Shown here piece by piece: positions 31,073-49,945 of a stretch of DNA of 64,000 nucleotides; positions within the stretch are counted from its first letter, which is position 1, and every line of letters starts with the position of its first letter. The translations under genes and the position numbers were made by a program. The notes beneath the pieces are model-generated. The model was not told the origin of the DNA. It did no database searches and worked only from the letters and a program-made list of their open reading frames with translations. This stretch comes from Flavobacteriales bacterium (GTDB taxonomy: Bacteria > Bacteroidota > Bacteroidia > UBA10329): NCBI GenBank assembly GCA_044356305.1, contig JBIKWM010000008.1, positions 33,947 through 97,946 on the forward strand. The letters are read 5' to 3'.

Positions 31073-32701
31073 ATGACGCTACGAACCGGATCAGCGATCA
31101 TACTCCTCACTCTAGCGGCTATCGGTGCTCAGGCACAGGGCAACGCTGCATCTGAGGTGCTGGTACGCAAGTTCTACCCCACTGCTAACGAGCAGCTCAA
31201 GAACGGGCGCTACCCTGCTGCCGCTCAGAATTTTGCTCAGATGGTCGAATCGGACCCGAAGAATGCCAACCTGAACTATAAGGCCGGTATGAGTTATCTG
31301 GGCCTTCCAGGACAGAAAGATAAATCTGTTCCATATCTGGAATTTGCGGTCACCGACATCAACGAGAAGTACAAGGACTCGCCCAATGAGCGCAAGGCCC
31401 CGGTAGATGCCATTTACCAATTGGCCCGCGCTTATCACATCACATTCCAGTTCGATAAGGCCATTGAGCACTACCGTAAGTTTGCCAATGTGGCCAAAGT
31501 GACCGATCAGGCCCAGTTGGATGAGCTGAACCGTCAGCTCGAGATGTGTGAGAACGGCAAACTGATTGCCGAGACGCCCGTGAGCGCCACCATCAGAAAC
31601 CTCGGGATCAAGCTCAACACTAAGTTTGATGAGTATGCACCTGTGGTGGATGTGACCGAGAGCGTTATGATCTTCACTTCGCGTAGGCCCACAGGCACAG
31701 GCGGTTTTCAGGACCCGGACGGGGAGTATTACGAGGACATTTTCATCTCTGTGAAAGAAGATACGCTATGGGGCCTGCCCAAAAGCATCGGAGGCAAAGT
31801 GAACACTGACGGGCACGAGGCCAGCATAGGCCTGAGCCCTGATGGACAGGAGCTTTTCATATACAGGGATGATTATGGCGATGGGAATATCTACGCCAGT
31901 CAACTCATCAGTGGCGAGTGGCGGGTGCCCGTGCGCCTCGGAGAGGCTGTTAACAGCACCTACCGCGAGACTCACGCGTCCGTTTCGGCCGATGGTCAGA
32001 CCCTTTATTTCACCAGCGACCGCCCGGGCGGGCAGGGTGGCATGGACATTTGGCGGGCGCGCAGATTGCCCACGGGTGATTGGGCCAGAGCAGAGAATCT
32101 CGGGCCACGTGTGAATACCAGATTTGATGAGGAGGCCCCGTTCATCCACCCGGATGGAAAGACGCTCTTCTTTAGTTCGAAGGGACATACGAGCATGGGT
32201 GGATTCGACCTGATGTTCACCATTTCGGATGATGGTGGTGCTTGGTCGAGCCCAATGAACATGGGCGTGCCCCTCAATTCGGCCGATGACGACTACTTCT
32301 TTGTCATGTCTCCCGATGGTAAGCGCGCCTATTATTCCTCGAGCATGAAAGGTGGGCAAGGAGGCAAGGACCTCTACATGATTTACCTCGAACGCGAAGA
32401 GACTCCGCTCACTGTTTACAAAGGTGTTTTCAGTCCTGATGCAAGCGGGAATCTGCCACAGAACGCCTCGATATCTGTGACCGATAACAACACAGGAGAG
32501 CTGTATGGAACCTATCGGCCACGTGCCGATAACGGGCGCTTCATACTGGTGCTGAATCCGGGTAAGGACTACATGATCACATACGAGGCCGATGGATTTG
32601 CTTCGCGGTCGGAGAAGCTGTTCGTGCCTGAGAACACGGCCTATTTCGAGATAAACAGGGCCATTCAGATGAATCCGATCACCCTCGAGGGCGGGCGTTG
32701 A
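31073..32701 (+). CDS. secreted TPR + TolB-like PD40 beta-propeller protein (cluster paralogue 1, no OmpA domain)
   Basis: Signal peptide. TPR-like N-terminus. PD40 repeats (DGQELFIY, DGQTLYFTSDRPGGQGGMDIW, DGKTLFFSS). C-terminal beta-sandwich. Confidence 0.8.
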   Translation: MTLRTGSAIILLTLAAIGAQAQGNAASEVLVRKFYPTANEQLKNGRYPAAAQNFAQMVESDPKNANLNYKAGMSYLGLPGQKDKSVPYLEFAVTDINEKYKDSPNERKAPVDAIYQLARAYHITFQFDKAIEHYRKFANVAKVTDQAQLDELNRQLEMCENGKLIAETPVSATIRNLGIKLNTKFDEYAPVVDVTESVMIFTSRRPTGTGGFQDPDGEYYEDIFISVKEDTLWGLPKSIGGKVNTDGHEASIGLSPDGQELFIYRDDYGDGNIYASQLISGEWRVPVRLGEAVNSTYRETHASVSADGQTLYFTSDRPGGQGGMDIWRARRLPTGDWARAENLGPRVNTRFDEEAPFIHPDGKTLFFSSKGHTSMGGFDLMFTISDDGGAWSSPMNMGVPLNSADDDYFFVMSPDGKRAYYSSSMKGGQGGKDLYMIYLEREETPLTVYKGVFSPDASGNLPQNASISVTDNNTGELYGTYRPRADNGRFILVLNPGKDYMITYEADGFASRSEKLFVPENTAYFEINRAIQMNPITLEGGR

Positions 32702-32796: not shown

Positions 32797-35700
32797 ATGG
32801 AATTGACCTTGGGCAAGAATCTGAACGGCATGCGCTGCATACTTAGCCTTTCTTGCCTGATTATCGGCTTGCCTCTCTGGGTGTCTGGTCAGCCCTTCGG
32901 TTCCGGAGAGTTCAAGACCAAGTTCATGAAGGCCGATGCCATGATCTATGACGGCCGGCATGAACAGGCGTTGCCATTGGTGATGGATCTGATAGCCACC
33001 GATTCTTCCAATGCCAATCTGAGTTTCATGCTCGGATCCTGTTATCTGTTCACGAAGCAGTATTCAAAGGCACTTTATTATCTCGACAAGGCGGTGCGCG
33101 ATGTCTCCATCTCGCATCAGGAAGCCAACCCAAAGGAGCGGAAGGCGCCAGGCATGGCGTATTTCTACCTAGGCAAGGCGCACCATTTCATCAACGAGTT
33201 CGATCAGGCCATATCAAATCTGTACAATTACCGTTCGTTCATCGATATGAACGATTACGCTGCATACACTGAGGTAAAGCGTCATATTGAGTATTCTGAG
33301 AACGCTAAGGAATTGGTGGAGAATCCGGTCAAGACCGATATCAAGAATATTGGCCCGACACTTAATACCAACTATCCGGAGTTCTCGCCAGTCATTTCGG
33401 CCGATGGGCAGACCCTCATATTCACTTCTAGGCGCGAAGGGAGTACAGGTGGTAAGCTCGACCAGAACGGGAAGTTCTATGAGGACATCTATGTGAGCAA
33501 AAGAGAGGGCGAAGATTGGAGCAAGCCTCAGAGCATTGGTCGCAATATCAATACTGATGGTCATGAGGCGAGTATAGGACTTTCTCCAGATGGACAGACC
33601 CTTTTCATCTACAAGGACGACAATGGCGATGGCAACATCTATGAGAGTTCGCTGATCAATAACGAATGGTCAACCCCTCGTAAAGTGGGAGGAGATGTGA
33701 ATACAAAATCGTGGGAGACACACGCCACCATTTCGGCCCGTGGCGATATGATTGTTTTTACATCGAATCGCGATGGCGGACAGGGTAAGCGCGACATATG
33801 GTTCTGCAAGTTGTTGCCCAATGGTCAATGGGGAGTGGCCCAAAATATGGGGCCGCTGATCAACACCCTTTATGACGAAGATGCACCTTCGCTATCGGCC
33901 GATGGAAACACATTGGTCTTCAGCTCGCAAGGGCACAATTCGATGGGCGGATTTGATATTTTCCGTACAGAGTTCGTTGATGGTGCATGGACAGCCCCTG
34001 AGAATCTTGGCTACCCGATAAATACTGCCGAGGACGACATCTTTATGGTCACAACCCCTGATGGGCGGTATGCTTACTACAGCTCCCAGCGCGAAGGAGG
34101 GGCAGGTGAGACAGATCTGTATCGGGTGAAACTCGATGTAAAGCGTCCTTCACTGCTAACAGTTTTCCGTGGCCTTGTCATAGTGCCAAACATGGATTTT
34201 GCTGGCACCAAGGTGGTTATGGATGTGCAGGATCAGGCATCGGGCCTCAGCATGGGGCAATTCAGGCCGAACGCCACTACAGGAGCCTATGTGTTGATTC
34301 TTGAACCGGGCATGAGCTACCGGGTGACCTACAGTGCGAGTGGGTATGGACCTGTGCAGAAGACAATCATGTCTGATGACATGAGTGCCTATGAGGAGAT
34401 AATGAAGGCGGTCGATCTGGAGCCAGTGGTATTTGGAGGCGAGCTTGAGGCACAGCTGAAAATGAAGCAGGATCTGGAACGCGAAAGGGCCGCGAACGAG
34501 CGCCTTTTGGCAGAGGAGAATGCGCGTCTGCAGGCTGCGTTTGAGGCAGCACAGGCCCAGGCAAAGGCGAAAGAGGAGGAAGAAGCGCGCATCAAGGCCG
34601 ATGAGCAGGCAAGCGCTGAGGCTCTTGCCGCTGAGGAGGCCAGAAAGGCTGAGGAGGCCCTGAGAGCCACAGAGGCCAAGCAGCAGCAAGAGCAGGCGGC
34701 AGAAACAGAGCAGCCCCAGCAGACCGAACCCCAGCCTGAGATTCAGCCTGAGCCGATAGCCGAACAACCTGTTGCGGTGGCGCCTCAAGAGAATGATGCC
34801 TTAGCCAAGAAGCGTGCGGCTATTGAGGAGATGCGCAAGCGGATGGCTCAGCAGGCAGAGGACAATGCCCATAACGAGCCTACGGAGGTAACTACCAAGG
34901 AGATTACGCCTACAGAGCAGCCAGAGCCTCAAAAGTCAGAGCCTGTTGCTGCGGAGGAGCCAGTTGTCGTGCAAGAAGCTGCAGCGGAGCCTGAGAAACA
35001 GCCTGAGAAACAGCCTGAGTCGGCAGTAGTGAGCGAGCCGGTTGAACAACCAGAGCCAGAATCTACGCAGGTTTCTCAACAGGAGGAGGCACGGGTTACG
35101 GAGCCGGTTATGGAACAGCAGCCAGAAGAAGTGGCTGTGGCCGAACCTGTGCAGAACCAGAAGTCTGATGCAGAGCGTCAGTTGGAGGAGAAGCGAATCA
35201 AGCTTCAGAGGCAGATTGACGATCTGAGGCAGAAACAACTGGGCAAGTCGCAGGAGCTCCAGAACGCAGCCGATGAGGCCGCACGACTCAAAGCGGAATC
35301 GGATGCCAAGGCACGTGAAGTGGAGGAGGCTAAGGCAAAGGCTGCAGAGGCCGAGCGTCAAAGGCTAGCCATTGAAGCAGAGACCAAGAAAGAGGCAGAG
35401 GCTATAGCCAAGGCTGAACGTGAAGCTCAGGAAATAGTCAAGTTGGAGCAGAAAGCGCATGCCGAAGCAGAGGCTAAACGTCTAGCAGACGAGAAGGCAC
35501 GGGAAGAAGCCGAGGCCAGGAAGATTGCCGAAGAGGAAGCCCGCATCAAGGCTGAAATGGAGGCTCAGCGCAAGGCTGAAGAAGCTGCACGTAAGAAGGC
35601 TGAGGCTGAGGAGAAGGCCCGGATTGAACGCGAGCGGATGGAGCAGGTGCTTGCTGAGCAGAGAATCAAGAAAGAGGAGGAGGAGAAGAGGAAGGCTGTT

Positions 35701-36438
35701 CTTGCTGAAGAGCGCAAGAAAGCCGAGGCCGAACGTCAGGAGACCATCAGAATTGAAAAGGAGCAGGCTCGGATAAAGGCGGAGGCAGCAAAAGCAGAGG
35801 CCGAGGCGGAGGCAATTGCGAGGCGGAATTCAGCGATAGAGGCAGGCACCATAGCTGAACTCAGGAAGATCAATCAGAAGTTGATCGATGAGAATCGGGA
35901 TATCAAGAAGCAACTGGCTGACATCAACGCGAAGTTGGATATGATCATCAATATACTCTCAGCAGGCAAAGGGGATGAGACATTCAGTGAGGCGGACCTC
36001 ACCGAGCTCAGCAAAAAAGGGAAGTTGGTACTCAATAATATCTTCTTCGATTACAATCAGGCCAGTTTGCGCCCCGAATCAAAAAAGGAACTCAATAAGC
36101 TTGTCTCGTTCTTGAAAGGCAATCCGGATGTGGCCATTGTGATAGGTGGGCACACGGATTCGCGTGGTAACGATGAATACAACATGAACCTGTCCCAGGA
36201 GCGTTCTGAATCAGTGAGCTCTTATTTGGTGAGTAGCGGAATTGATGCAAGTAGGCTCTCTGCCCGTGGATATGGCGAATCGAAACCGATAGCAAGGAAC
36301 GAGAATGTTGATGGGACGGATAATCCAAAAGGTCGCCAGCTGAACAGGCGCATTGAAATAAGTATAGTGGGTGCCGGCATGGATGATGTGGAGGTGAAGA
36401 AGATCAAAGTCCCTTCAGAACTTAAAGTAGTTGATTGA
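32797..36438 (+). CDS. TPR + PD40 propeller + ~550-aa E/A/K/Q/P-rich spacer + C-terminal OmpA peptidoglycan-binding domain (paralogue 2)
   Basis: Same N-terminal module as 31073. OmpA-C signature ...GGHTDSRGNDEYNMNLSQERSESV...NRRIEI. Confidence 0.85.
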   Translation: MELTLGKNLNGMRCILSLSCLIIGLPLWVSGQPFGSGEFKTKFMKADAMIYDGRHEQALPLVMDLIATDSSNANLSFMLGSCYLFTKQYSKALYYLDKAVRDVSISHQEANPKERKAPGMAYFYLGKAHHFINEFDQAISNLYNYRSFIDMNDYAAYTEVKRHIEYSENAKELVENPVKTDIKNIGPTLNTNYPEFSPVISADGQTLIFTSRREGSTGGKLDQNGKFYEDIYVSKREGEDWSKPQSIGRNINTDGHEASIGLSPDGQTLFIYKDDNGDGNIYESSLINNEWSTPRKVGGDVNTKSWETHATISARGDMIVFTSNRDGGQGKRDIWFCKLLPNGQWGVAQNMGPLINTLYDEDAPSLSADGNTLVFSSQGHNSMGGFDIFRTEFVDGAWTAPENLGYPINTAEDDIFMVTTPDGRYAYYSSQREGGAGETDLYRVKLDVKRPSLLTVFRGLVIVPNMDFAGTKVVMDVQDQASGLSMGQFRPNATTGAYVLILEPGMSYRVTYSASGYGPVQKTIMSDDMSAYEEIMKAVDLEPVVFGGELEAQLKMKQDLERERAANERLLAEENARLQAAFEAAQAQAKAKEEEEARIKADEQASAEALAAEEARKAEEALRATEAKQQQEQAAETEQPQQTEPQPEIQPEPIAEQPVAVAPQENDALAKKRAAIEEMRKRMAQQAEDNAHNEPTEVTTKEITPTEQPEPQKSEPVAAEEPVVVQEAAAEPEKQPEKQPESAVVSEPVEQPEPESTQVSQQEEARVTEPVMEQQPEEVAVAEPVQNQKSDAERQLEEKRIKLQRQIDDLRQKQLGKSQELQNAADEAARLKAESDAKAREVEEAKAKAAEAERQRLAIEAETKKEAEAIAKAEREAQEIVKLEQKAHAEAEAKRLADEKAREEAEARKIAEEEARIKAEMEAQRKAEEAARKKAEAEEKARIERERMEQVLAEQRIKKEEEEKRKAVLAEERKKAEAERQETIRIEKEQARIKAEAAKAEAEAEAIARRNSAIEAGTIAELRKINQKLIDENRDIKKQLADINAKLDMIINILSAGKGDETFSEADLTELSKKGKLVLNNIFFDYNQASLRPESKKELNKLVSFLKGNPDVAIVIGGHTDSRGNDEYNMNLSQERSESVSSYLVSSGIDASRLSARGYGESKPIARNENVDGTDNPKGRQLNRRIEISIVGAGMDDVEVKKIKVPSELKVVD

Positions 36439-36457: not shown

Positions 36458-39400
36458 ATGATGATGAATCTACGTGTTTCCCTTATCGGCCCCATTTTTA
36501 ATCTATTTTCATCCGCTTTTTCAGGATCGATGAAAGACCGTACCGGACGGTCAGAATCAATGCTTCAACCTCGACTGACGTTTAGCTTTTTCGTATTGAC
36601 CGCCCTCATGCTTGCCATGACCGGGCAGGGGTATGCGCAATCGCGGGATATCCGTCAGACCACTGAGGAGGAGATGAACCGCGAGATTAACCAGACCCCT
36701 GAGGAACGCGCAAAGGCACGTATCAGAGTCACCCCTAAAACCGCACAGGAGCTATACTATAACGGCAATTTCAGAGCAGCACTTGATGAGTTTCTGATCC
36801 TTTTGGCTAAGAATCCCACCGACCCCGACCTCAATTTCTTTATCGGTGCATGTTATCTGGAGAGCAACATTGATAAGAAAAAGGCCGTCCAATATCTTGA
36901 GTTCTCTGTATCACAGCCTAAGTATCCGAAAGAAGCCATCTATCAATTGGGTAGAGCTTACATGTTCTCTCATCGCTTTGATGAGGCCATCACAACTTTC
37001 AACAAGTACAAGGACATTCAACGCGGGAAGGAGGACAATATAATAACCGGGACACGGATGATTGAGATGTGCTTCACAGCCAAAGAACTTGTGAAGTACC
37101 CACGTGATGTGACGTTTGAGAACCTTGGCATAAACATCAATTCAGCCTATCCTGAGTACAATCCATTTATTCCGGAGGATGAGTCTTTCATTGTATTCAC
37201 AACTAAACGTCCGGATTGTTTGGGTCTACAATTGGATTATGATGGTTATAAGACTCCTGATATTTATCGTGCAAGAACTACTCGTGGTAGATTTTCCGAG
37301 GCGCGGAACATAGGTTCCTCGGTCAATACGGAATGGTATGAGGAGTGCGTTGGTCTATCAGCTGATGGTCAGGAACTGCTTGTTTACATCGACAATTTCG
37401 ATGGGTACGATGATATCTACAACTCGCCCCGCAAGGGCCGATTCTTTGATGAGTACTATTCTCTCGGGCCGAACATCAACACCGATGAAATAGAGACCAC
37501 AGCGAGTATGAGCACAGATGGTCAGCTGCTATTCCTGACCCGCGAAGTGGGTAAGGGAGTAACAGGGACTGATATTTATATGTCGCGCAAGCTGCCCAAT
37601 GGTACCTGGGCCATTCCGACACGTTTGCCAGATGTGATCAATACCAAGTACAATGAGGCGTTCCCGCACCTTGCCGATGACGGTAAGACACTGTACTTCG
37701 CATCTGAAGGCCACATGAGCATGGGTGGCTTCGATATTTTCACCACCGAGTATGATGAACTGACCGGCACTTGGTCAGTACCACGTAATGTCGGTTATCC
37801 GATCAATACGGTGGATGATGATTTTAATATCTCAATGTCCACCACTGGGCGCTATGGCTATGTCTCTCAGTTCAGGGAAGAGGGGTATGGCGAGCGGGAT
37901 ATCTATATGGTGACTTTTAAGGACACCGACCCGGTAGAGACCATTGTTCGAGGTTCAATCACCAATATAAGAGATTCGCTTAAGAATGATCCGAGATATG
38001 AGGTAGGCAATTTCCTTATGACCGTGCGTAACATGGACACCGATGAGTTCATCGGTTATTACCGACCTAATAAAGGCAGCAGCAATTATGCTCAAGTACT
38101 TGATCCCGGTGAATATTGCGTTTACGTTGAAGGGGAGTCTTTCTTTGACACATCTGCCGTTATTGAGGTTCTTGGGCGTGATGCACAGGTACGTGAACAG
38201 ATTTTTGACTACACACTGAGACCTGATCCTAATGCCAAGCGCAAGGGTAAGGAAAGCAAATGCCAGATTTATGCATTGAGTGGAAGTGTTGATGGCATGG
38301 CCAAACTGTGGGAAGTACCGAGTGGCCGACTTATCCTTAATCTGGATAACCGGAAGGAGGTTTCATCGGTTCAATTCTCGCCCAATGGGAAATATGCTGC
38401 AGCCAGTTGCAATGATGGTAGCATCAACCTATGGAACCTACCTGATGGCACGCCTAGCAAGACATTGTATGGTCACAAAGGACGTGTGAACCGGGTCGTA
38501 TTCACACCGAACAGCCGCTACATCCTGTCATGCGGAGCCGATTCCACGGTGCGCTCTTTCGATATCGCGACAGGTAAGCAGACGAATCTTTACATTGGCC
38601 ATGTGGGCAATGTGAACGATGTGACTGTTTCGTCTGACGGCAATTACCTCATTACGGTATCAGACGATGGGAACGTATTGATGTGGGACTTCAAGTCCAC
38701 TGAACTTGTCGGGGTTTATGATGGGCATTCAGGACCGGTTCGTAGCGCCATGTACTCGCCCTGTGGCAATTTCATCGTAACCGGTGGCAGCGATGGAAAA
38801 GCAATAGTGTGGAACATCACCACTGCCAAACCCGAGACCATCTTCTCATTACATGGCACAGATGTTACTTCGGTTCGAGTGTCGCCCGACTGTAGCACCA
38901 TTGTGTCAACCGACCGCAAGGGATTCACCTATTCCTGGGACAGGAAGCTGGGTAGTGTAAAGAACGCCATGCCGAGCAATCAGGCCGTGGCATCGTCATT
39001 TATCAGCAAAGACTCGCGCTACATTATCACCGGAGGCAAGGAGCGGGACCCGCGCGTGTGGGCTTTCGGCAATGGTGATCAGGTAACCACCCTGTTCGGC
39101 CATAAGGGTTATGTCAATGATGTGGCATTCTCTCCTTGCATCAAGTTCCCCGAAAAGGAAATTCCCGACATCAAACCTGCCGACCCAAAGGAGGTACAGG
39201 CACTCGAGGCGGAGGTTCAGAAGCTTGAGGAGGAACTGGCCAAGATGGAACAACTCAAAAAGCTCGGTTACGACCCCAGCCTCTTGGATGTTGACATCAA
39301 GAACACGAAGAAATTCAAGGTGGGCGATAAGATCATTCTTGAACGTATCTACTTTGATTTCGATAAGTTCAATATCCGCGATGAGTCTGTTGTGCAGCTC

Positions 39401-39718
39401 AATCAGTTGCTGCTGTTCCTTACCAACCAGCCGACTGTGATTGTAGAGATATCGGGCCACACCGATTCGCGCGGCACTGACGACTATAATGAAAAGCTCT
39501 CCCGCAACCGTGCAAAGAGTGTCGTTGCATGGTTGGGCGAACGGGGAATCCCGAGCAAAAGAACTGTGGCCAAGGGATATGGAGAACGAAAGCATATTGC
39601 ACCTAACGAAAATCCAGATGGGTCGGATAATCCTGAAGGCCGTCAGATGAACCGAAGGATAGAACTCACCATCATTGGGGTCGCGGGCGAGAAGATCATC
39701 ACAACCGAAAACAACTGA
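36458..39718 (+). CDS. TPR + PD40 propeller + 7-blade WD40 propeller + coiled coil + OmpA domain (paralogue 3)
   Basis: Likely true start ATG 36560 (MLQPRLTFSFFVLTALMLAMTGQGYAQ). WD40 repeats (LWNLPDG..., ...SCGADSTVRSFD, ...VSDDGNVLMWDF). OmpA-C ...SGHTDSRGTDDYNEKLSRNRAKSV...NRRIEL. Confidence 0.85.
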   Translation: MMMNLRVSLIGPIFNLFSSAFSGSMKDRTGRSESMLQPRLTFSFFVLTALMLAMTGQGYAQSRDIRQTTEEEMNREINQTPEERAKARIRVTPKTAQELYYNGNFRAALDEFLILLAKNPTDPDLNFFIGACYLESNIDKKKAVQYLEFSVSQPKYPKEAIYQLGRAYMFSHRFDEAITTFNKYKDIQRGKEDNIITGTRMIEMCFTAKELVKYPRDVTFENLGININSAYPEYNPFIPEDESFIVFTTKRPDCLGLQLDYDGYKTPDIYRARTTRGRFSEARNIGSSVNTEWYEECVGLSADGQELLVYIDNFDGYDDIYNSPRKGRFFDEYYSLGPNINTDEIETTASMSTDGQLLFLTREVGKGVTGTDIYMSRKLPNGTWAIPTRLPDVINTKYNEAFPHLADDGKTLYFASEGHMSMGGFDIFTTEYDELTGTWSVPRNVGYPINTVDDDFNISMSTTGRYGYVSQFREEGYGERDIYMVTFKDTDPVETIVRGSITNIRDSLKNDPRYEVGNFLMTVRNMDTDEFIGYYRPNKGSSNYAQVLDPGEYCVYVEGESFFDTSAVIEVLGRDAQVREQIFDYTLRPDPNAKRKGKESKCQIYALSGSVDGMAKLWEVPSGRLILNLDNRKEVSSVQFSPNGKYAAASCNDGSINLWNLPDGTPSKTLYGHKGRVNRVVFTPNSRYILSCGADSTVRSFDIATGKQTNLYIGHVGNVNDVTVSSDGNYLITVSDDGNVLMWDFKSTELVGVYDGHSGPVRSAMYSPCGNFIVTGGSDGKAIVWNITTAKPETIFSLHGTDVTSVRVSPDCSTIVSTDRKGFTYSWDRKLGSVKNAMPSNQAVASSFISKDSRYIITGGKERDPRVWAFGNGDQVTTLFGHKGYVNDVAFSPCIKFPEKEIPDIKPADPKEVQALEAEVQKLEEELAKMEQLKKLGYDPSLLDVDIKNTKKFKVGDKIILERIYFDFDKFNIRDESVVQLNQLLLFLTNQPTVIVEISGHTDSRGTDDYNEKLSRNRAKSVVAWLGERGIPSKRTVAKGYGERKHIAPNENPDGSDNPEGRQMNRRIELTIIGVAGEKIITTENN

Positions 39719-39723
39719 CAACC

Positions 39724-42700
39724 ATGCGCAGCACCGGCATAGGGCGAGTGTCAGCACATTTATTGGGCATAGCACTCCTTGGCTTCATTTCGTTTATTGC
39801 CCCACAAGTAGCATCAGCCCAGCCTGTTGTAGGAGAGGAGCGGCAGAGTGTGTCGAATATTCAAGGCCCCATTGAGATCAAGTGCTTCGTTAAGGAGCTC
39901 ATGAACACTATGAAAGGGGTGATTGTCACCATTTATGAAGATGCTGATGGATCGCGTACCAAACTGAATGAACTCCAGAAAATAGTCACCCCAGGCAATG
40001 GCCAGTTCACATTCAAGTTGAACATCAACAGGCTGTACATGATAGAGTACAGCAAACCGGGCTACACTTCGAAGAAGGTGGACTTTGATACCGATGTGAA
40101 GATGGCACGGCCTGAACATACCAAAGTGCCAACATTTGAATTTGAGGTGCAGATGGTAAAAGATCTTGATGGTCTGGCTTTTAAGAGTTCGGTGGCCAAG
40201 GTCTTCTATCACATCAAGCGAAATGAACTGGACTATGAGCTTGATTACTCCAAAGAGGAAATGTTGGAGGAAGAGCGCAAGATCAAGGAGTTAGAAGAGA
40301 AAAGGCGATTGGCTGAAATAGCTGCCCAGAAGAAGCTGGAGGTGGAGAATCAGGCCCTCTCAGCACGTGAAAAGGACCGGTTGGCGGCTGAGTCAAAGAT
40401 TAAGGCGGCCGTGCTGATGGGCTCAGACGAAAAGAAGGTGAAGGAGCAGTTGGTGAAAGTTTTCTCTGATGTCGATTCGCTGCGCTACAAAAAGGCCGAT
40501 GCCATGTATTTGGAGCTGCAGAAGGAGCGCCAGCGCACCGGTGGCAACAACGCAGCCATTAACTATGGCAGCATTTTCGATGCGGCTGTAAGGCTAGAGG
40601 ATAAGGTTGTGGCTGATAAGGCCGCAGCCGATGCCAAGAAGCAGGAGGAACTCAGGAAAGTAAAGACCGATGTGGTGCAGAAACAGCAGGAGGCTATCCA
40701 AAAGGAACAAGAGGCCCAGAAGCTGATAATGCAGAACAAGCTGGCACAGGCCACTGCTGCCGAGGATGCAAGGAGGGCGGCTGAGGAAAAGGCCAAGCGC
40801 GAAAGCGTGTACAATGCATTGCTCAATTCAAGCGGGAGCAAGGAAAAAGCCATTGCCAACCTGATGACGGTGTTCGCCAAGGGCGATGAATACAAGGAAG
40901 AGAAGGCCGAGGCCATGTACATGGCCTATGAGAAGGCCAGGCAAGGGGGCAAGACCTTGGCGAACATGAACTACAGCGACCTTTTCTCGGCAGCGCGTCA
41001 GGCCGAGGATGCGGCTGTAGAGAAAAAGTTGGAAGAGGAGCGCAGAAAGGGCAATGACAAGACCAACGAGATAATCAAATCGTTGGATGAGAAGAAATTA
41101 AAGGAGGAATCTGCCCAGAAAACAAAGATTGAGGCCGCACTTGCCATAGCCAAGAACGAGACCGAAAGAAAACAGGCCTTTATTGAGGCATTGCCAAAGA
41201 ACGACCCTTACCGTCAGCAGAAGGGCGAGGCCATGTATGCTGAATTCCAGAAGCAGCAGCAGGCTCTGAACACTGGTGGCTCGGCCAAAACGGGGATTGA
41301 CTTCGGTTCAATTTTCGGAGCAGCCGAGACTGCTGAGCTTACCATCAAGAACAAGGAAAAAGAGGAATTGGCCCAGGCAAAGCGCCAACAGCAGGATGCT
41401 ATAGAGTCAAAGCTCGAGACCGTGCGTTCCGAAAAGAGCAAGATGGCCCAGGAAGCCGCAACGGTTGCCCAGGATGTACAGAAACAGAAACTGGGCGAGG
41501 CTGCAAACGCCAAGGAGAAGAAGTTGGCTGATGCAATAGGTAAGGCTGAGGGCGACCGATCAAAGGCCATTCAGTCCATCATGTCGACATTTGAGAAAGG
41601 GACTGAGTACAAGCAGGAACGTGCCGAAGCCATCTATGACGCCTATCTTGCTGAAATAGTGCGGATAAAGAACTCAGGGAACACCACGACCAAAATCGAT
41701 TTCGGTAAGCTGTTCGGTGCAGCTGACAAAGCTGAACTGGAGGCAATAACCAAGCAGTATGAAGCCAAGAAGGCCGAAGAGGACCAGAGGTTGGCCAATT
41801 ACACGGCCCAGCGGACAGAGAAGGCCGTAGATCTGGCGCAGGTCAAGGCCAAGGAAGCTGAGGAGAAGGCCGCCACTGCCGCTGCGGATCTTGCCAAGAC
41901 CAAATCGGACCTTGAGAATGAACGCATCAAGCGCGATCTGGCGCTCATGAAGCAGAAGGAACAGGAGGAGAAGACCTTGGCGATGGAGGAAGCCAAGAGG
42001 GCTGCAGAACTGAGGGAACGCGAACAGGCCTCTATGTCTCAATCTGAAAAGGACAAATTAGCCGCTGCCGAGAAACTTAGAAAGGAGACCGAAGCTGCAA
42101 GGGCAAAGCTTGAGGCTGAAGAAAGACGCAAAGCGGAAATCGCACAGGCGGCAGAGGAGAAACAGCGACAGGCAGACCTTGCACTGCAATCGAAGGCCGA
42201 AAAGGAACGTCAGGCTGCTATGGACGCTCAGAAGAAGGAAGAGGAGAGACTACGTAAAGAGAAGGAACTGGCGGACGCCAAGGCCAAAGCGGAAGAGTCG
42301 AAGCGATTGGAGGCCGAGCGTGCTGAAGCTGAGAAGAAGCGTCAGGCAGAGATGGCTGCCGCAGAGCGAAAGAAGGCCGAGGAACTGGCCGCAGCCCAGA
42401 AGGCAGAACGCGAGAGGTTGCTTGCTGCCGAACAGGCTGAGAAGGACCGGTTGGCAGCTGAGAATGCTCAGCGCACAGCTGCTGAAAAGGCAGAAAAGGA
42501 CCGGATTGCAGCCGCGGAGCGCAAAAAGGCTGAGGAATTGGCCGCAGCCCAGAAGGCAGAACGCGAAAGGTTGCTTGCTGCCGAACTTGCCGAAAAGGAG
42601 AGGATTGCGGCTGAGAATGCGAAAAAGGCTGCTGAGGAGAAGGCTGAGAAAGACCGACTTGCTGCCGAGGCCGCCAAGAAAGCGGCAGACGAGAAGGCCG

Positions 42701-43890
42701 AACGTGACCGCATACTTGCGGCTGAAAAGGCTGAGAAGGACCGTATAGCAAAAGAAGCGGCTGACCAGAAGGAGCGTGAACGCCTTGCATTGGAGGAGAA
42801 GAAGAAGGCGGAGGCCGATCAGATTGCAAAGGCGGCCGAAGAGAAGCGCAGACTTGACGAACAGTTCCGTTCACTTATTCAGGCCGGTGACCTGGCTTTC
42901 ACGGCCAAGAACTATAGCAAGGCAAAGGACGATTATGCCAAGGCTGCGGCACTCAAACCCGATGACCGCGAACTGAAGAGCAAGATCGGCTCGACAGATG
43001 CCGAGTTGAACAAACTGGCCATTGCCGATGCAGCTGCCAAGGAGAAAGAGCAGAAATTTCAGAATCTGTTGAAAGAGGGTGATGAGCAGATGGCCGATGG
43101 CGAGTACCCATTCGCGCGCAACACCTATTTCAAGGCTCAAGAGATGAAGCCCAATGACCCTTCGGTGCGGGCAAAGATCAAACAGGCTGATGATGCCATT
43201 GCCGCGGCCACCAAGGCCCGCGAGGCAGAACAGGCCAAGGAACGTCAGTACATTGTGCTGATGCAGGACGGTGGAAAGGCCATGGACTCCCGAGACTATG
43301 TCACGGCCAAGAAGAAATACAACGATGCCCTGGCTCTGAAACCTGGATCGGCCGATGCGACCAAGAAGTTGAGCGACATCAAAGTCATAGAAGATCAGAT
43401 GGCTGCCGCGACCAAGGCAGAGGATGAGAAGAAGCGTCAGGCGCAGGAGGCATTTGCTCAGAAGCAGAAAGAGGAGGAGGAGCGTAAGGCTGCCATTGCC
43501 CTTGAACGTCAGAAGGCCCTTGGCGATATTACAAATGGCAATGCGCAGACCCAGCCTGCCGCAGGTGGTGCCCCGAGCTCGGCCGAGCAGGAGCGCCAGC
43601 GCAAGTTTGAGGCACTCAAGCTGCAGATTGAGGACATGAGCAGCAATGCTGATGAACGCAGGAGGATGTTCCTCTCAGAACTTGCCAAGCTTTATCCAGA
43701 GGGTGTCACCTATGAGGCGGTTCCCGGTTCGAACTACAAGTTGGACCGGTATGTGATAAACAACAAAGGCGTGGTGAACGTGTACGAGAAACGTACATGG
43801 GACTGGGGCGGTGTGTTCTACTTCAAGGACAACGGAGTGGCCATCACCGAGTCGCTCTACAACCTGGAGCTGAACCGATACAAGAAGTGA
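39724..43890 (+). CDS. giant secreted coiled-coil protein (E/K/A-rich, ~1000 aa helical) with N-terminal beta-sandwich and C-terminal TPR-like repeats
   Basis: Signal peptide. Four ~65-aa modules (...F.KG.EYK.EKAEAMY...). 51-aa tandem repeat AAERKKAEELAAAQKAERERLLAAE... x2. TPR-like KAKDDYAKAAALKPDD. Confidence 0.75.
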   Translation: MRSTGIGRVSAHLLGIALLGFISFIAPQVASAQPVVGEERQSVSNIQGPIEIKCFVKELMNTMKGVIVTIYEDADGSRTKLNELQKIVTPGNGQFTFKLNINRLYMIEYSKPGYTSKKVDFDTDVKMARPEHTKVPTFEFEVQMVKDLDGLAFKSSVAKVFYHIKRNELDYELDYSKEEMLEEERKIKELEEKRRLAEIAAQKKLEVENQALSAREKDRLAAESKIKAAVLMGSDEKKVKEQLVKVFSDVDSLRYKKADAMYLELQKERQRTGGNNAAINYGSIFDAAVRLEDKVVADKAAADAKKQEELRKVKTDVVQKQQEAIQKEQEAQKLIMQNKLAQATAAEDARRAAEEKAKRESVYNALLNSSGSKEKAIANLMTVFAKGDEYKEEKAEAMYMAYEKARQGGKTLANMNYSDLFSAARQAEDAAVEKKLEEERRKGNDKTNEIIKSLDEKKLKEESAQKTKIEAALAIAKNETERKQAFIEALPKNDPYRQQKGEAMYAEFQKQQQALNTGGSAKTGIDFGSIFGAAETAELTIKNKEKEELAQAKRQQQDAIESKLETVRSEKSKMAQEAATVAQDVQKQKLGEAANAKEKKLADAIGKAEGDRSKAIQSIMSTFEKGTEYKQERAEAIYDAYLAEIVRIKNSGNTTTKIDFGKLFGAADKAELEAITKQYEAKKAEEDQRLANYTAQRTEKAVDLAQVKAKEAEEKAATAAADLAKTKSDLENERIKRDLALMKQKEQEEKTLAMEEAKRAAELREREQASMSQSEKDKLAAAEKLRKETEAARAKLEAEERRKAEIAQAAEEKQRQADLALQSKAEKERQAAMDAQKKEEERLRKEKELADAKAKAEESKRLEAERAEAEKKRQAEMAAAERKKAEELAAAQKAERERLLAAEQAEKDRLAAENAQRTAAEKAEKDRIAAAERKKAEELAAAQKAERERLLAAELAEKERIAAENAKKAAEEKAEKDRLAAEAAKKAADEKAERDRILAAEKAEKDRIAKEAADQKERERLALEEKKKAEADQIAKAAEEKRRLDEQFRSLIQAGDLAFTAKNYSKAKDDYAKAAALKPDDRELKSKIGSTDAELNKLAIADAAAKEKEQKFQNLLKEGDEQMADGEYPFARNTYFKAQEMKPNDPSVRAKIKQADDAIAAATKAREAEQAKERQYIVLMQDGGKAMDSRDYVTAKKKYNDALALKPGSADATKKLSDIKVIEDQMAAATKAEDEKKRQAQEAFAQKQKEEEERKAAIALERQKALGDITNGNAQTQPAAGGAPSSAEQERQRKFEALKLQIEDMSSNADERRRMFLSELAKLYPEGVTYEAVPGSNYKLDRYVINNKGVVNVYEKRTWDWGGVFYFKDNGVAITESLYNLELNRYKK

Positions 43891-43916: not shown

Positions 43917-45842
43917 ATGCATCTGAGGTCGATACCACTCCTTTTCGTTTTCCTCAACATCACTGCCATAGCTTTCGGTCAAGCAGCCGATGATGGTGTG
44001 AAGGGCGCCACGCCACAGGCATTGGCCAAGAACTATTTTGAGATAGGTGACTATCGCAATGCGCTGAAGGAGTATCAGAAGCTGGTGGCCGAGAAACCCG
44101 AGGACCTTTTCTACAACTACCGCGTAGGTCTGTGCCACCTCAACCAGAACATTGACAAGAGCTGGAGCCTGCCCTATCTCCGCAAAGTGGTGGCCGATGC
44201 CAACAGCGACCCGGAGGCATTGTATGATATGGGCCGTGCCTTCATGTACAACGAGCAGTTGGACAGCGCTATCCTATTCTTCAACAAGTACAAGGGAAAG
44301 GTGAAGGATGGTGCGCGCCTGGTGGAGGCCACACGCAACGTGGAGTTCTGCACCCAGGCCAAGAAGCTGATGGAGAAACCGCTCAATGTGAGTTTCTACA
44401 ATCTTGGCAAGGACATCAACAGTGAGGGGCCAGAGTTCAATGCCTTTATCCCTGACGATGAGAGTTTCATTGTCTATTCTACCAAGCGCGACAAAGGGGT
44501 GATGGGCAACAACCTCGACTTTGACGGTTATAAGCCGGCAGACGTGTTCTGGGCCAAAGCCAAGGGAGGTGAGTTTGACAAGGCCAAAAGTGTGGGTGCC
44601 ACCATCAACACCGAATGGGTGGAGGAGATCACCGGCCTATCGGCCAATGGCGAGTACATGTTTCTTGCCATCGATAATGCAGAGGCCTATGATGATGTGT
44701 GGGTGACGGAGTTCAACGGGCGGCAATGGAGCAAGACCATCCCTTTCGGGCCTACCATCAACACCCAGGACCCCGAACTGGCCGCTTCGAGCTCGCCCGA
44801 TGCGCAGGTGCTGTACTTCTCGCGCCAGAGCTCGGCTGTTGAGGGTTTCGGTGGGTTGGACATCTACATGGCCAAGAAGCTGCCCAATGGCCATTGGAGC
44901 ACGGCCGTGAACCTGGGCCCTACCGTTAACACGCAGTACGATGACTCGTACCCACAGGTGTCGGCCGATGGGCGCACCCTCTACTTCAGCAGCATGGGTC
45001 ACAACAGCATGGGTGGCTACGATGTGTTCAAGAGCGAGTGGGACGATAAGTATCAGCGCTGGGGAAGGGCCGACAACATCGGGTATCCGCTCAACAACAC
45101 GATGGACAATTTCACCTTCTCGCGCACCGGAAACATGCGCTACGCCTATGTGGCGCAGTTGCGCAAAGGCGGGCTCGGTGACCTCGACATCTATCGTGTC
45201 ACATTCAACGACATCCCGAAGGAGATGACCGTTCTGGTAGGCAATATTGAGCTGTACAACTCTCCCAACAAACGAACCATCAACCTGCATACCTATACCA
45301 AAGACGGTCAGGTGAAGGTTTTCACCGATGAGTATCAGCCCACCGATGACCCCACTTGGACCTACAAGGAGACCAAGAAGGAGGCCATTAAGGATGGCGA
45401 GAAATATGAGATAACCATCATCGGGTCGTACAAGGGGCAGGTGCAGAAATTCACCCCCGAGAATTTCCCGAAGGATGTGGCGAACTTCAAATGGGTGGAT
45501 ACGCGCATCAGCAAGGTGAAGGTGCCCGTGGTGCCCACCAAGATTGAACCGGTGCCCTACAAGGGCATGAAGGAGCCCATCATCAGCATTGTGATAAAGG
45601 ACTATGCGGGCAAGACGGTGGGCAAGTACACCGCCAATCGCAGGTTGGGCCGTTTTGTCGCCTCGCTCGAGCCATCGGACCACGGGCTGTACACCGTCAC
45701 GATGTCGGCACCGGGCTACGAGACCACCGAGGAGAAGGTGAGTGTGGTGGGCATGGGCCAGTATAAGACCGAGATAAAGAAGACTTTCAAGCTGGTAGAG
45801 AAGGGCCTAACACTGCCCGCACCGGCCACCGCCCCCAAATGA
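43917..45842 (+). CDS. secreted TPR + PD40 propeller protein with C-terminal beta-sandwich domains (paralogue 4)
   Basis: Signal peptide MHLRSIPLLFVFLNITAIAFGQ. Same module order as 31073. Confidence 0.8.
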   Translation: MHLRSIPLLFVFLNITAIAFGQAADDGVKGATPQALAKNYFEIGDYRNALKEYQKLVAEKPEDLFYNYRVGLCHLNQNIDKSWSLPYLRKVVADANSDPEALYDMGRAFMYNEQLDSAILFFNKYKGKVKDGARLVEATRNVEFCTQAKKLMEKPLNVSFYNLGKDINSEGPEFNAFIPDDESFIVYSTKRDKGVMGNNLDFDGYKPADVFWAKAKGGEFDKAKSVGATINTEWVEEITGLSANGEYMFLAIDNAEAYDDVWVTEFNGRQWSKTIPFGPTINTQDPELAASSSPDAQVLYFSRQSSAVEGFGGLDIYMAKKLPNGHWSTAVNLGPTVNTQYDDSYPQVSADGRTLYFSSMGHNSMGGYDVFKSEWDDKYQRWGRADNIGYPLNNTMDNFTFSRTGNMRYAYVAQLRKGGLGDLDIYRVTFNDIPKEMTVLVGNIELYNSPNKRTINLHTYTKDGQVKVFTDEYQPTDDPTWTYKETKKEAIKDGEKYEITIIGSYKGQVQKFTPENFPKDVANFKWVDTRISKVKVPVVPTKIEPVPYKGMKEPIISIVIKDYAGKTVGKYTANRRLGRFVASLEPSDHGLYTVTMSAPGYETTEEKVSVVGMGQYKTEIKKTFKLVEKGLTLPAPATAPK

Positions 45843-47363: not shown

Positions 47364-48335
47364 CTACTCCCTTTGCACCACAAGTTTACGCACTGCCACG
47401 GCACCGTTCTCAAACTGTGCTCGCACCATGTACACCCCAATGTTAAGGCCACTTACATCTATCTCCCGCACCGCACCGCCATGGCTTTGCAGATCCCGCC
47501 CGCTCAGGTCATTTATGGCCACTGTGTTTATTCGCCTGTTGCTATTGTGGCTTATGGCCACAGTTGTTGTGGCGGGGTTGGGGTAGATATCAAAGCCATA
47601 CATTTCGCTGTCTTTGACACCGTTGGGTAGTTCTATACGCCTGACGGAAACATCGTCAATAAAGTAATATGCAATTCCAGAAATTATACTTGTGTCGTTG
47701 ATAACATCTGTATCCTCATCCGTACTAAAATTCCCGATGGTTAAAAAAGATTCAGCCCCACTGGCAACGTACAGTGCATCAAAATTATACCATAAACCAG
47801 ATTCCTGCATAAATTCAATTCCTGGCCCAATTATTTGAGGTGCCACAGGCAAGAGAGGAAAGCTGCCAGTATCGGAATAAACTGGTTGTGAAGAAAAATG
47901 CATACCGATGGATTTAATGGCAGGTGCAACGTTACATGACTTTGAAATATGCATTTTAACCCTATAAGTACATCCATAAATTAAGGTTTCCTTTAGTTTA
48001 TTCGAAACATATTCTCGGCCATTTCCTGACCGTGAATAAACAATGAGACCAATCATGCCATCACCTGAATTGGTCATGTTAACGTTACAATCCATTGCCG
48101 GAATACCCACATATGGATTCATTTCATTTGCACATAAATTAAAATAATCCGGAGTGCCAGTTGTTGGGTTGTACCAATGTAACAATTTATCCACTTCACT
48201 AGGTACAAAAGGAGGACTAATTTGAGTTGGACATTCATAATACTCCTCAAATCCACCATTAGGGACAAGATTGGGTTCTTGCGAAAACCCTTTATCCGCG
48301 GCCAACAATAGACCAATAATTATTATTGCTCTCAT
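47364..48335 (-). CDS. T9SS cargo protein, CBM4/9-like N-terminal domain, type-A CTD (duplicate copy 1)
   Basis: Signal peptide. QEPNLVPNGGFEEY start typical of CBM_4_9. C-terminal ...YPNPATTTVAISHNSNRRINTV...GVYMVRAQFENG. Confidence 0.75.
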   Translation of the reverse strand: MRAIIIIGLLLAADKGFSQEPNLVPNGGFEEYYECPTQISPPFVPSEVDKLLHWYNPTTGTPDYFNLCANEMNPYVGIPAMDCNVNMTNSGDGMIGLIVYSRSGNGREYVSNKLKETLIYGCTYRVKMHISKSCNVAPAIKSIGMHFSSQPVYSDTGSFPLLPVAPQIIGPGIEFMQESGLWYNFDALYVASGAESFLTIGNFSTDEDTDVINDTSIISGIAYYFIDDVSVRRIELPNGVKDSEMYGFDIYPNPATTTVAISHNSNRRINTVAINDLSGRDLQSHGGAVREIDVSGLNIGVYMVRAQFENGAVAVRKLVVQRE

Positions 48336-48820
48336 GGTGCCAAAATAAACTTACTCGTGATTCCTGAGATTTGAATAAAGTAAACCCCACCAGCAAAGCC
48401 GTTAAGTTCTAACTTAGTTTGGCCACAATTTAGAATATTACGCTCTATAACGTGACCTAAGGGATTAGTGATCACATATTCAAACTTCTCTTCTGATACG
48501 CAACCTTCAACTCCGACCCATACGTGACGAGTAGTTGGGTTAGGATATACTATGACCTTAATGGACGATTCATCATCGTCAGTCACAGGAACTAAGTCGT
48601 CTTGTCCTCTTCTTTCAGAAGGTGGTTCTGTCAATAACTCACATTCATTGATCCATTCCCTATGCACCAATGTATCACGAGCAGAAAGTACTGCCCTTGC
48701 CAGATAAACTGAACTTCCTGAATCAAGCGGGCAAGCCGATGCCAAGGATTCGAGCCATGGCAGATCGACACTGTCGGGCATGGTGTTCTCTGACCAATGT
48801 GTGATGTTATAGGCCATCAT
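48332..48820 (-). CDS. CTD-only ORF (T9SS sorting domain without signal peptide); possible gene fragment
   Basis: C-terminal ...VIVYPNPTTRHVWV...GGVYFIQI. No N-terminal signal. 4-nt overlap with the downstream cargo gene. Confidence 0.5.
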   Translation of the reverse strand: MMAYNITHWSENTMPDSVDLPWLESLASACPLDSGSSVYLARAVLSARDTLVHREWINECELLTEPPSERRGQDDLVPVTDDDESSIKVIVYPNPTTRHVWVGVEGCVSEEKFEYVITNPLGHVIERNILNCGQTKLELNGFAGGVYFIQISGITSKFILAP

Positions 48821-48859
48821 CCTGGTTAAGGTACGTTCAGCATCATAAACTACAGGTTG

Positions 48860-49804: not shown

Positions 49805-49945
49805 GGCACCAAAATAATTTTGTTGGTGACCCCTGAGATTTGAATAAAATACAATCCCCCCGGCCCGCGCGAGTGTTCCGTAGGACCACTCGTGTGGTGT
49901 GGAACACGATCGGTCTGTGACCGATCTAACAACTAGGCATTCCAT
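49805..49945 (-). pseudogene. degraded remnant of a second CTD-only ORF
   Basis: Reverse strand encodes ...GGIVFYSNL.., aligning with the GGVYFIQISGITSKF tail of 48332..48820. Flanking nt similarity exists (tgagatttgaataaa). Confidence 0.4.

Follow-up and report, generated by a model that had tools for sequence, protein, structure and literature searches.

What does a very long, helix-rich exported protein do in the middle of an array of PorE-like genes? The question is raised by a gene, here called T, within a 64,000-nucleotide stretch of DNA from a Flavobacteriales bacterium (assembly GCA_044356305.1, contig JBIKWM010000008.1, positions 33,947 to 97,946 of the forward strand), referred to below as the window. 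T is an intact, uninterrupted open reading frame (ORF) of 1388 codons on the + strand (39724..43890), as an earlier note made from the letters alone had described it. Its start codon lies 5 nt past the stop of the upstream gene C and its stop codon 26 nt before the downstream gene D. The best explanation of our results is that T is a soluble envelope protein, exported by the Sec pathway and processed by signal peptidase I, with the design of a rod between two bookends. Its parts are as follows, with the evidence for each in brackets.

39724..39819, + strand: signal peptide, aa 1-32, with signal peptidase I cleavage predicted between ASA32 and Q33 (sequence)
39856..40263, + strand: N-terminal β-sandwich (N-dom), aa ~45-180 (AlphaFold2 (AF2), Foldseek, weak Pfam match, NCBIfam CRD match)
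40264..41763, + strand: helical region with four paralogous modules (internal blastp; AF2 for module 1)
41764..42858, + strand: charged, Ala-rich helical spacer, aa 681-1045 (composition, periodicity statistics)
42859..43443, + strand: three 65-aa TPR-like repeats, aa 1046-1240 (internal blastp, near-threshold Pfam TPR)
43444..43650, + strand: variable linker, aa 1241-1309, E/K-rich then G/P/Q-rich (composition, low conservation)
43651..43887, + strand: C-terminal α/β domain (C-dom), aa ~1310-1388 (conservation, AF2, profile search)

Conserved ends and a variable middle

In 60-residue windows, the composition of T is that of an ordinary globular protein from the N-terminus to about residue 180, long, E/K/R/A/Q-rich and repeatedly broken in the middle, and again ordinary and globular over the last ~80 residues. 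No Pfam or NCBIfam family matches full-length T at E<=0.01, and the best hit in a PDB sequence search has E=0.05. Searches of Pfam, NCBIfam and PDB with the full protein and with five segments revealed no family beyond weak CRD and TPR signals. Two ORFs in other frames, at 42110-42748 (+) and 42218-42874 (-), encode R/P/Q/S-rich products of 212 and 218 aa; they were rejected as genes and are frame shadows of the repetitive GC-rich coding sequence.

A word-index search returned eight homologues of T with 35-47% identity, to which an exhaustive search added others, including one that is 63% identical over the full length (P0015). When one genome per GTDB species was scanned, 24 loci emerged, all of them from metagenome-assembled genomes of uncultured Flavobacteriales/Bacteroidia. 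About 22 of them are orthologous, and two (L029 and L031) hold paralogues. The full-length orthologues that were extracted comprise 1130-1587 aa, and every one of them has the C-dom, together with 4-6 modules and 0-6 TPR-like repeats. Mean identity to T over 20 full-length orthologues is 57% for N-dom, 60% for C-dom, 40-47% for the modules, 21-32% for the linkers between them, 33% for the spacer (aa 681-1045) and 28%, with 16% gaps, for the variable linker (aa 1241-1309). We counted this pattern, with ends that are 57% and 60% identical and a middle that is 21-33% identical and variable in length, in favour of reading T as a connector between bookends.

The signal peptide, as read from the sequence, consists of a positive n-region, a hydrophobic core and an AxA motif followed by Gln. 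A Gln stands right after the hydrophobic core in all nine family members of one alignment. Bacteroidetes follow a Q-rule, by which Gln occupies position +1 after signal peptidase I cleavage (PMC5837995), and the signal peptide of T, with its Gln at +1, fits this rule. Neither a lipobox Cys nor an SHLS motif was found when the N-terminal sequence of T was read.

Residues 30-300 were modelled with AF2 from an 8-sequence alignment, with a mean predicted local distance difference test score (pLDDT) of 78.5. The model contains a nine-strand sandwich (aa ~50-173, pLDDT ~80-87), followed by a 51-residue helix and by three short helices that correspond to module 1. A Foldseek search of PDB with the N-dom model returned sandwiches of the transthyretin/CarboxypepD_reg type, including the N-terminal extension of a SusC transporter. 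The CarboxypepD_reg-like β-sandwich that had been proposed for this end of the protein is thus borne out by the model and by Foldseek, whereas Pfam scores CarboxypepD_reg (PF13620) on T at only 15.1 bits (E=0.03), under the gathering cut-off of 32.3. The isolated N-dom also matches the CRD part (positions 453-514) of the NCBIfam CHU_0125 model with E=7e-4. We assign N-dom to the CarboxypepD_reg/CRD type of sandwich, extended here by two strands, in which the motifs FDTDV, DxDGL, VFY and DYELDY(S/T)KEE are invariant. Compared with the CRDs of the neighbouring proteins of the window, it gave a marginal local match to protein A alone (E=0.002, 8 sequences), and no close kinship was shown. The two paralogues mentioned above (L029 10001-10922 and L031 10001-10917) carry two tandem sandwiches of the N-dom type. 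They occur in the genomes that hold L026 and L024, respectively, elsewhere on the chromosome, with no PorE-like neighbours within tblastn reach.

The C-dom, overlooked by the earlier note, occupies the last ~80 residues (aa ~1310-1388) and is the best-conserved part of T. Its motif is FLSELAxxYPEGxTxE...WDWGGVFYFKD..., and in T the sequence reads FLSELAKLYPEGVTYE...WDWGGVFYFKD... AF2, run on a 72-sequence alignment, produced a model with a pLDDT of 88.7 and a predicted template modelling score of 0.77, in which two helices precede a five-strand antiparallel sheet and a final helix. Foldseek found no PDB structure below E=0.07 for this model, a profile of the domain gave only chance-level matches to PDB sequences and Pfam, and neither Pfam nor NCBIfam has a model for it. 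Word-index searches with the C-dom or its alignment recovered almost nothing and missed even known orthologues, so that an exhaustive search was needed. A HMMER profile search of 1.84 billion cluster representatives revealed 458 proteins at E<=1e-3, 60 at E<=1e-10 and 12 at E<=1e-30.

These proteins define a superfamily in which the position of the C-dom is strict: in 154 of 154 rescanned proteins it ends 0-33, and mostly 0-5, residues from the C-terminus. Among 59 members scanned, 32 match CarboxypepD_reg at the N-terminus (E<1e-3) and 20 carry TPR repeats, with strong matches. A profile of the N-dom of T showed that 62 of 157 C-dom proteins have this domain too, immediately behind the signal peptide, and proteins that possess both domains range from ~340 to 1900 aa in total. 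The general design of the superfamily is therefore a signal peptide, a CRD-type sandwich, a variable middle of charged helices and TPR repeats, and the C-dom. T is a specialised member of this uncatalogued Bacteroidota superfamily, and its extended N-dom sandwich, its 75-aa helical module and its C-dom represent three uncatalogued protein modules. Eight of the 59 members match the domain II part of the NCBIfam TolA model, which reflects composition.

Two fusions link the C-dom to other periplasmic domains. In one protein (P0099) it follows an RlpA-like DPBB lytic transglycosylase domain and no SPOR domain is present; in RlpA, the peptidoglycan-binding SPOR domain is usual at the C-terminal end. 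In another (P0118) it follows a YfiR/HmsC-like periplasmic domain. These fusions hint at a periplasmic, possibly wall-associated docking role for the C-dom. Six other superfamily members were examined in their own gene contexts and none is next to PorE-like genes. Three of the six (P0079, P0071 and P0040) lie directly upstream, by 3-55 nt, of Peripla_BP_2/FecCD/ABC_tran genes, which encode ABC importers of the siderophore/haem/B12 type (L032 8001-11648; L034 1017-7016; L038 6001-10857). This adjacency may be a second conserved operon type of the superfamily.

Helical modules and a charged helix

Between the two end domains, internal blastp identified four related modules of ~75 aa.

40396-40620, + strand: module 1, aa 225-299
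40804-41028, + strand: module 2, aa 361-435
41125-41358, + strand: module 3, aa 468-545
41521-41757, + strand: module 4, aa 600-678

Pairwise, the modules share 25-42% identity, with blastp E values from 1e-15 to 4e-4. The earlier note had recognised all four and their relatedness, and had put them at ~65 aa, a length that our comparison moves closer to 75. A profile of the module gave at most chance-level matches to Pfam and PDB, and the module was seen only in orthologues of T. The modules are joined by charged helices, with a start-to-start spacing of ~136/107/132 aa in every clade, and the linkers contain 0% gaps over 20 orthologues despite their 21-32% identity. The long spacer, in contrast, varies from 78 to 583 aa across orthologues. 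Fixed linkers and a variable spacer indicate that the N-terminal half is geometrically constrained and that the C-terminal rod is freely adjustable.

After the spacer come three 65-aa TPR-like repeats, each composed of a TPR hairpin and a following helix, that match each other at E~1e-8 by blastp. When aa 1040-1270 were scanned with Pfam, TPR_11 scored 24.4 bits (cut-off 26.8) and TPR_2 scored 20.6 (cut-off 27). Three orthologues (P0004, P0005 and P0007) carry precomputed TPR matches. The C-terminal TPR-like repeats suspected from the letters are thus present, at scores just under the Pfam cut-offs.

The spacer itself (365 aa) is the sole long uninterrupted E/K/A-rich stretch of T. It comprises 12% LIVMFYW, 27% Ala and 51% charged residues with a net charge of 0, and includes a tandem duplication at 42351-42667 of 153 bp (51 aa), with 2.1 copies and 79% matches (Tandem Repeats Finder). 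The earlier note had assigned about 1000 aa of T to heptad-like sequence, which the statistics contradict. Hydrophobic periodicity of the spacer in the 3.4-3.75 band exceeds shuffled sequences by z=2.8, with a peak at 3.65 and not at 3.5, whereas a tropomyosin control reached z=15.2 in the same test. Occupancy of heptad positions a and d by hydrophobic residues is, in the best register, 2.03/8 for the spacer versus 2.06±0.13 for shuffles and 4.56/8 for tropomyosin; with Ala counted as a core residue it is 4.61/8 versus 4.73/8 for shuffles. An excess of oppositely charged residue pairs is seen at i+3 (z=3.5) and i+4 (z=5.7), with a deficit at i+5 to i+7, and the identity autocorrelation peaks at lags of 11, 18, 29, 40 and 51. 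The charge pairing and the autocorrelation are the signature of an isolated helix and not of an M-like or SMC-like coiled coil. Between the modules, the short linkers are likewise non-heptad, apart from aa 546-597, which show a moderate heptad pattern (4.4/8).

By its sequence, the spacer thus resembles a single α-helix (SAH) of the ER/K type or TolA domain II, with no heptad hydrophobic core. SAH domains of the ER/K type are found, for example, in myosin VI/X and caldesmon. The spacer shares with them a ~51% charged composition, low hydrophobicity, the lack of a heptad seam and the enrichment of opposite charges at i+3/i+4. It differs in being much richer in Ala (27%) than classic E4K4 SAHs and in its 365-aa length within a bacterial envelope protein, and the likeness is one of sequence, the monomeric state being only predicted. 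Canonical coiled coils such as streptococcal M proteins, SMC arms and tropomyosin are also long, helix-rich and E/K/A/R/Q-rich, but T lacks the periodicity of tropomyosin (2.8 versus 15.2) and its a/d occupancy is at the level of shuffles. Neither an SMC head or hinge nor an LPXTG-type anchor was found in T with Pfam, NCBIfam and PDB, and its C-terminus reads ...LELNRYKK. As to the refuting outcomes listed in the earlier note, the orthologues of T are intact, and T is not accounted for by any SMC-like or M-like family. The length of about 150 nm given in the earlier note presumes one unbroken helix, whereas the modules and TPR hairpins fold back; the spacer alone, as a continuous helix, would extend over ~55 nm (365 x 0.15 nm).

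The PorE-like neighbours and their linkage to T

T is flanked by four genes whose products combine TPR repeats with a PD40 propeller, as assigned with Pfam and NCBIfam and, for B, also from the sequence.

31073..32701, + strand: A, 542 aa; TPR, PD40 propeller, CRD, no OmpA
32797..36438, + strand: B, 1213 aa; TPR, PD40 propeller, CRD, ~490-aa spacer, OmpA_C
36458..39718, + strand: C, 1086 aa; TPR, PD40, CRD, inserted WD40 propeller, short coiled coil, OmpA_C
43917..45842, + strand: D, 641 aa; TPR, PD40 propeller, CRD-like domain, no OmpA

A, B, C and D are mutual paralogues that share 32-43% identity over their TPR and propeller regions, so that T does lie embedded in a paralogue array, as had been noticed. 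They score 176-299 bits against the NCBIfam CHU_0125/PorE models, far under the cut-offs of 600-620, which indicates that they are paralogues and not PorE itself. All five proteins have signal peptides of the signal peptidase I type with Gln at +1 and no lipobox; PorE, unlike them, has a lipobox. T shares with PorE/CHU_0125 the CRD-type sandwich and the TPR-like repeats, and the C-terminal half of B has a layout like that of T, in which a CRD and a charged spacer are followed by a globular domain at the end. It differs in having neither a PD40 propeller, which all four neighbours have, nor an OmpA_C domain, which B and C have.

The spacer of B (aa 550-1040, nt 34444-35916) is E/K/A-rich, then P/E/Q-rich (TonB-like), then E/K/A/R-rich. 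It weakly matches TolA domain II (E=1e-5), and the gap between the conserved parts of B orthologues measures ~390-810 aa. In C, a eukaryote-type WD40 propeller is inserted at 38255-39142, between CRD and OmpA_C. This insert is restricted to the T clade and is absent in L004-6, L022-28 and L030. A co-occurrence of the TPR repeats of T with the WD40 insert of C was considered and rejected, since one locus (L022) has six TPR-like repeats and no insert. Just before OmpA_C, C harbors a genuine short heptad coiled coil (aa 905-940, 39170-39277) with an a/d occupancy of 6/8. The listed start of C (MMMNLRV..., 36458-36560) lies ~34 residues ahead of its signal peptide, and the alignment with orthologues begins only at about aa 31-44. 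The true start of C is probably Met25 or Met35, and the gap between B and C would then be ~90-120 nt instead of 19 nt.

In the T clade the genes follow one another as E2 acyltransferase, A, B, C, T, D, exonuclease, and the P0008 clade retains C-T-D. The gene directly upstream of T is C in every orthologous locus, B lies upstream of T in all that reach that far, and D lies downstream in every locus that is long enough, except L027. The co-occurrence with PD40-OmpA genes that the earlier note proposed to examine is thus complete in the ~22 orthologous loci. It persists where the flanks differ: the two most divergent genomes, L025, a complete chromosome, and L027, have unrelated flanks (one with CBS, ABC-2 transporter and SOD genes, the other with genes for cytochrome c peroxidase, cobalamin adenosyltransferase and TsaD) and both lack A, yet B, C and T remain adjacent. 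Retention of B-C-T despite this turnover of the flanks indicates a conserved core, beyond background synteny. The length of T orthologues also co-varies with the length of the B spacer (Spearman 0.79, 19 genomes); after independent contrasts, r=0.43 with a permutation p of ~0.03. Promoter and terminator scans across the cluster gave counts no different from those in shuffled sequence.

Elsewhere in the window, a 736-aa ORF at 6701-8911 (+) joins a C-5 cytosine DNA methylase to Arm-DNA-bind_5, a domain typical of integrases. The fusion is unusual and is possibly part of a mobile element.

Location and proposed role of T

The word "secreted" in the earlier note holds for Sec export, given the signal peptide, and does not extend to the cell surface, for which we found no signal. 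Four ORFs of the window (13566-15320, 47364-48335, 48332-48820 and 48860-49945) match Pfam Por_Secre_tail, which indicates that the organism uses a type IX secretion system (T9SS) and that the Pfam model works in this genome. The first (13566-15320, -) is a T9SS cargo with SprB repeats and DUF7619; the others (47364-49945, -) are three small tandem ORFs of 323, 162 and 361 aa, with Por_Secre_tail at the end and no other recognised domain. T itself has no match to Por_Secre_tail/TIGR04183 or to the type-B TIGR04131, either as the full protein or as the isolated C-dom even at E<=10. The C-terminal domains of T9SS substrates are Ig-like 3+4 β-sandwiches (PMC11285876). T was therefore rejected as a T9SS cargo, with no sorting-domain match and a C-dom of α2-β5-α fold, that is, three helices and five strands. 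No lipobox, β-barrel or transmembrane anchor was found in T either. With no T9SS domain, lipid anchor, barrel or transmembrane anchor, the periplasm is the default location, and judging from its sequence T most likely stays there. The periplasmic fusion and operon partners of the superfamily agree with this location.

In a 2025 analysis, Bacteroidetes were described as lacking tol-pal loci, and PorE, a CpoB-TolB-Pal fusion with a CP domain, was put forward as the protein that tethers their outer membrane to peptidoglycan, perhaps with the help of a TolA/TonB-like protein (PMC12204202). The OmpA_C domain of PorE binds peptidoglycan and its propeller binds PorP (PMC12773672), and CHU_0125 maintains outer-membrane integrity in Cytophaga (PMC5891637). 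We propose that T acts passively in the periplasm as a connector, or spacer, within an assembly of the Tol-Pal kind that is anchored to peptidoglycan, a function to which we give a probability of roughly 45%. T would be co-transcribed with PorE/CHU_0125-like CpoB-TolB(-Pal) fusions, two of which carry the peptidoglycan-binding OmpA_C. N-dom and C-dom would dock onto partners, which may be the PorE-like paralogues, peptidoglycan or both. The ~1,130 mostly helical residues between the end domains would act as a long connector whose middle sets the reach, and the 365-residue helix would be held by i/i+4 salt bridges with no hydrophobic seam, free to drift in length between species. The five proteins would form an envelope-tethering assembly of two TolB-like members (A and D), two TolB-Pal-like members (B and C) and the rod T, in which T may take the place of the extended domain II of TolA, although it would not be linked to any inner-membrane motor. 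The data show the anatomy of T, its conservation, its gene linkage and its lack of known sorting signals and of a heptad core; from them we infer that T resides in the periplasm, that its end domains bind partners and that it serves as a tether. In a broader and doubtful version of this proposal, T would be the missing long partner of the PorE-type tether and a motor-independent, un-anchored analogue of TolA domains II and III, and its C-dom would be a new periplasmic docking domain of length-adjustable bookend tethers in at least 458 clusters, each composed of a CRD sandwich, a variable rod of single helix and TPR repeats, and the C-dom.

Several points weigh against a connector role in this assembly. 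The assignment of the spacer as a single helix has sequence statistics as its sole basis. A 55-nm helix would exceed the width of the periplasm, so that the rod would need to run parallel to the wall or fold back. Most loci share housekeeping flanks (E2 acyltransferase and exonuclease), and the synteny is partly vertical inheritance, with only two loci that break the flanks. The co-variation in length between T and B is weak after phylogenetic correction and is at most suggestive, since a genome-wide expansion of E/K-rich repeats could produce it. Finally, the superfamily occurs elsewhere without PorE-like neighbours, so that its end domains are not specific PorE binders in general.

This last point leads to another reading, which we regard as possible though unlikely, in which T is a periplasmic rod that binds an unrelated partner such as peptidoglycan, an outer-membrane component or a transporter, and the gene cluster reflects shared regulation of envelope genes with no physical complex. 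The same end domains do occur in other contexts, three of six beside Peripla_BP_2/FecCD/ABC genes, and the C-dom of the RlpA-like protein sits where SPOR is usual, but the four-module subfamily was found only in the B-C-T context, which it keeps through the turnover of flanks, and the rod lengths of T and B co-vary. T might also assemble with itself, as an antiparallel hairpin or an Ala-core dimer or trimer, into a coiled-coil periplasmic filament or lattice that is largely independent of its neighbours. The 27% Ala of the spacer would allow Ala-based packing, the third linker (aa 546-597) is moderately heptad, fixed linker lengths suggest a defined helix-helix geometry, and periodicities of 11 and 18 residues are also known in non-heptad bundles. 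We find such self-assembly rather improbable in view of an a/d occupancy that equals that of shuffles even with Ala counted, a hydrophobic content of 12%, a charge pairing typical of isolated helices and an unconserved spacer length. A surface fibre, one of the two roles offered in the earlier note, would require that T crosses the outer membrane and forms a long helical stalk like those of M proteins or trimeric autotransporters. T is very long, helix-rich and equipped with a signal peptide, the window encodes four cargo proteins of the T9SS that the organism possesses, and the conserved, strictly C-terminal C-dom could in principle be an unrecognised sorting signal. However, there is no T9SS sorting domain, lipobox, β-barrel or autotransporter domain in T, the C-dom fold is unlike an Ig-like sandwich, the C-dom is fused elsewhere to periplasmic RlpA-like and YfiR-like domains, and the heptad core that a stalk would need is lacking. 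A fibre thus appears improbable; the folded-back scaffold that the same note had offered, linked to the PD40-OmpA genes, survives.

The automatic annotation of T points in yet another direction. IMG labels two near-identical copies of T, members of the 90% cluster to which T belongs (P0173 and P0174), 'colicin import membrane protein', that is TolA, while the other names in the cluster read 'hypothetical'. T does resemble TolA in its long Lys/Ala/Glu-rich helical segment (aa 681-1045) and in its TolB-, Pal- and CpoB-like neighbours, and it might therefore be imagined as a true force transducer of the TolA/TonB type, anchored in the inner membrane and energised by TolQR or ExbBD. TolA is defined by a transmembrane anchor at its N-terminus, whose SHLS motif binds TolQR (PMC12204202). 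The sequence of T instead predicts a cleavable signal peptide, and all nine aligned members carry Gln at +1; the pattern S-x3-H-x6-L-x3-S is absent from the N-terminus of T, and a His in the hydrophobic core is missing from most of the nine. TolA and TonB C-terminal models match neither full-length T nor the isolated C-dom, whose fold differs, and neither the annotated ORFs of the window nor the flanking genes of L025 and L027 include a member of the MotA/ExbB/TolQ or ExbD/TolR families. T also carries a β-sandwich right after the predicted cleaved signal peptide, where TolA has a linker, and adds helical modules and TPR hairpins. Membership in the TolA family was rejected for lack of the anchor with its SHLS motif, of the TolA C-terminal domain and of adjacent tolQR, so that the IMG label is a compositional artefact. 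A force transducer is very improbable and already largely refuted. Braun's lipoprotein (Lpp), a 58-aa trimeric lipoprotein covalently bound to peptidoglycan, offers a further comparison. Like T, it stands for the notion that the length of a helical envelope protein matters for the spacing between outer membrane and peptidoglycan, but T has 20 times its length, carries no lipid and differs in length from species to species.

Bacteroidota have, to our knowledge, no Braun's lipoprotein, and how their outer membrane is attached to the wall is the question on which T may bear. All members of the T family come from uncultured organisms and the function proposed here is an inferred one. Two labels can be corrected, namely 'coiled coil' and the automatic 'colicin import membrane protein/TolA'. 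With its set of neighbouring genes, which can be tested, T is a concrete candidate for the TolA/TonB-like partner proposed for the PorE-type tether (PMC12204202).

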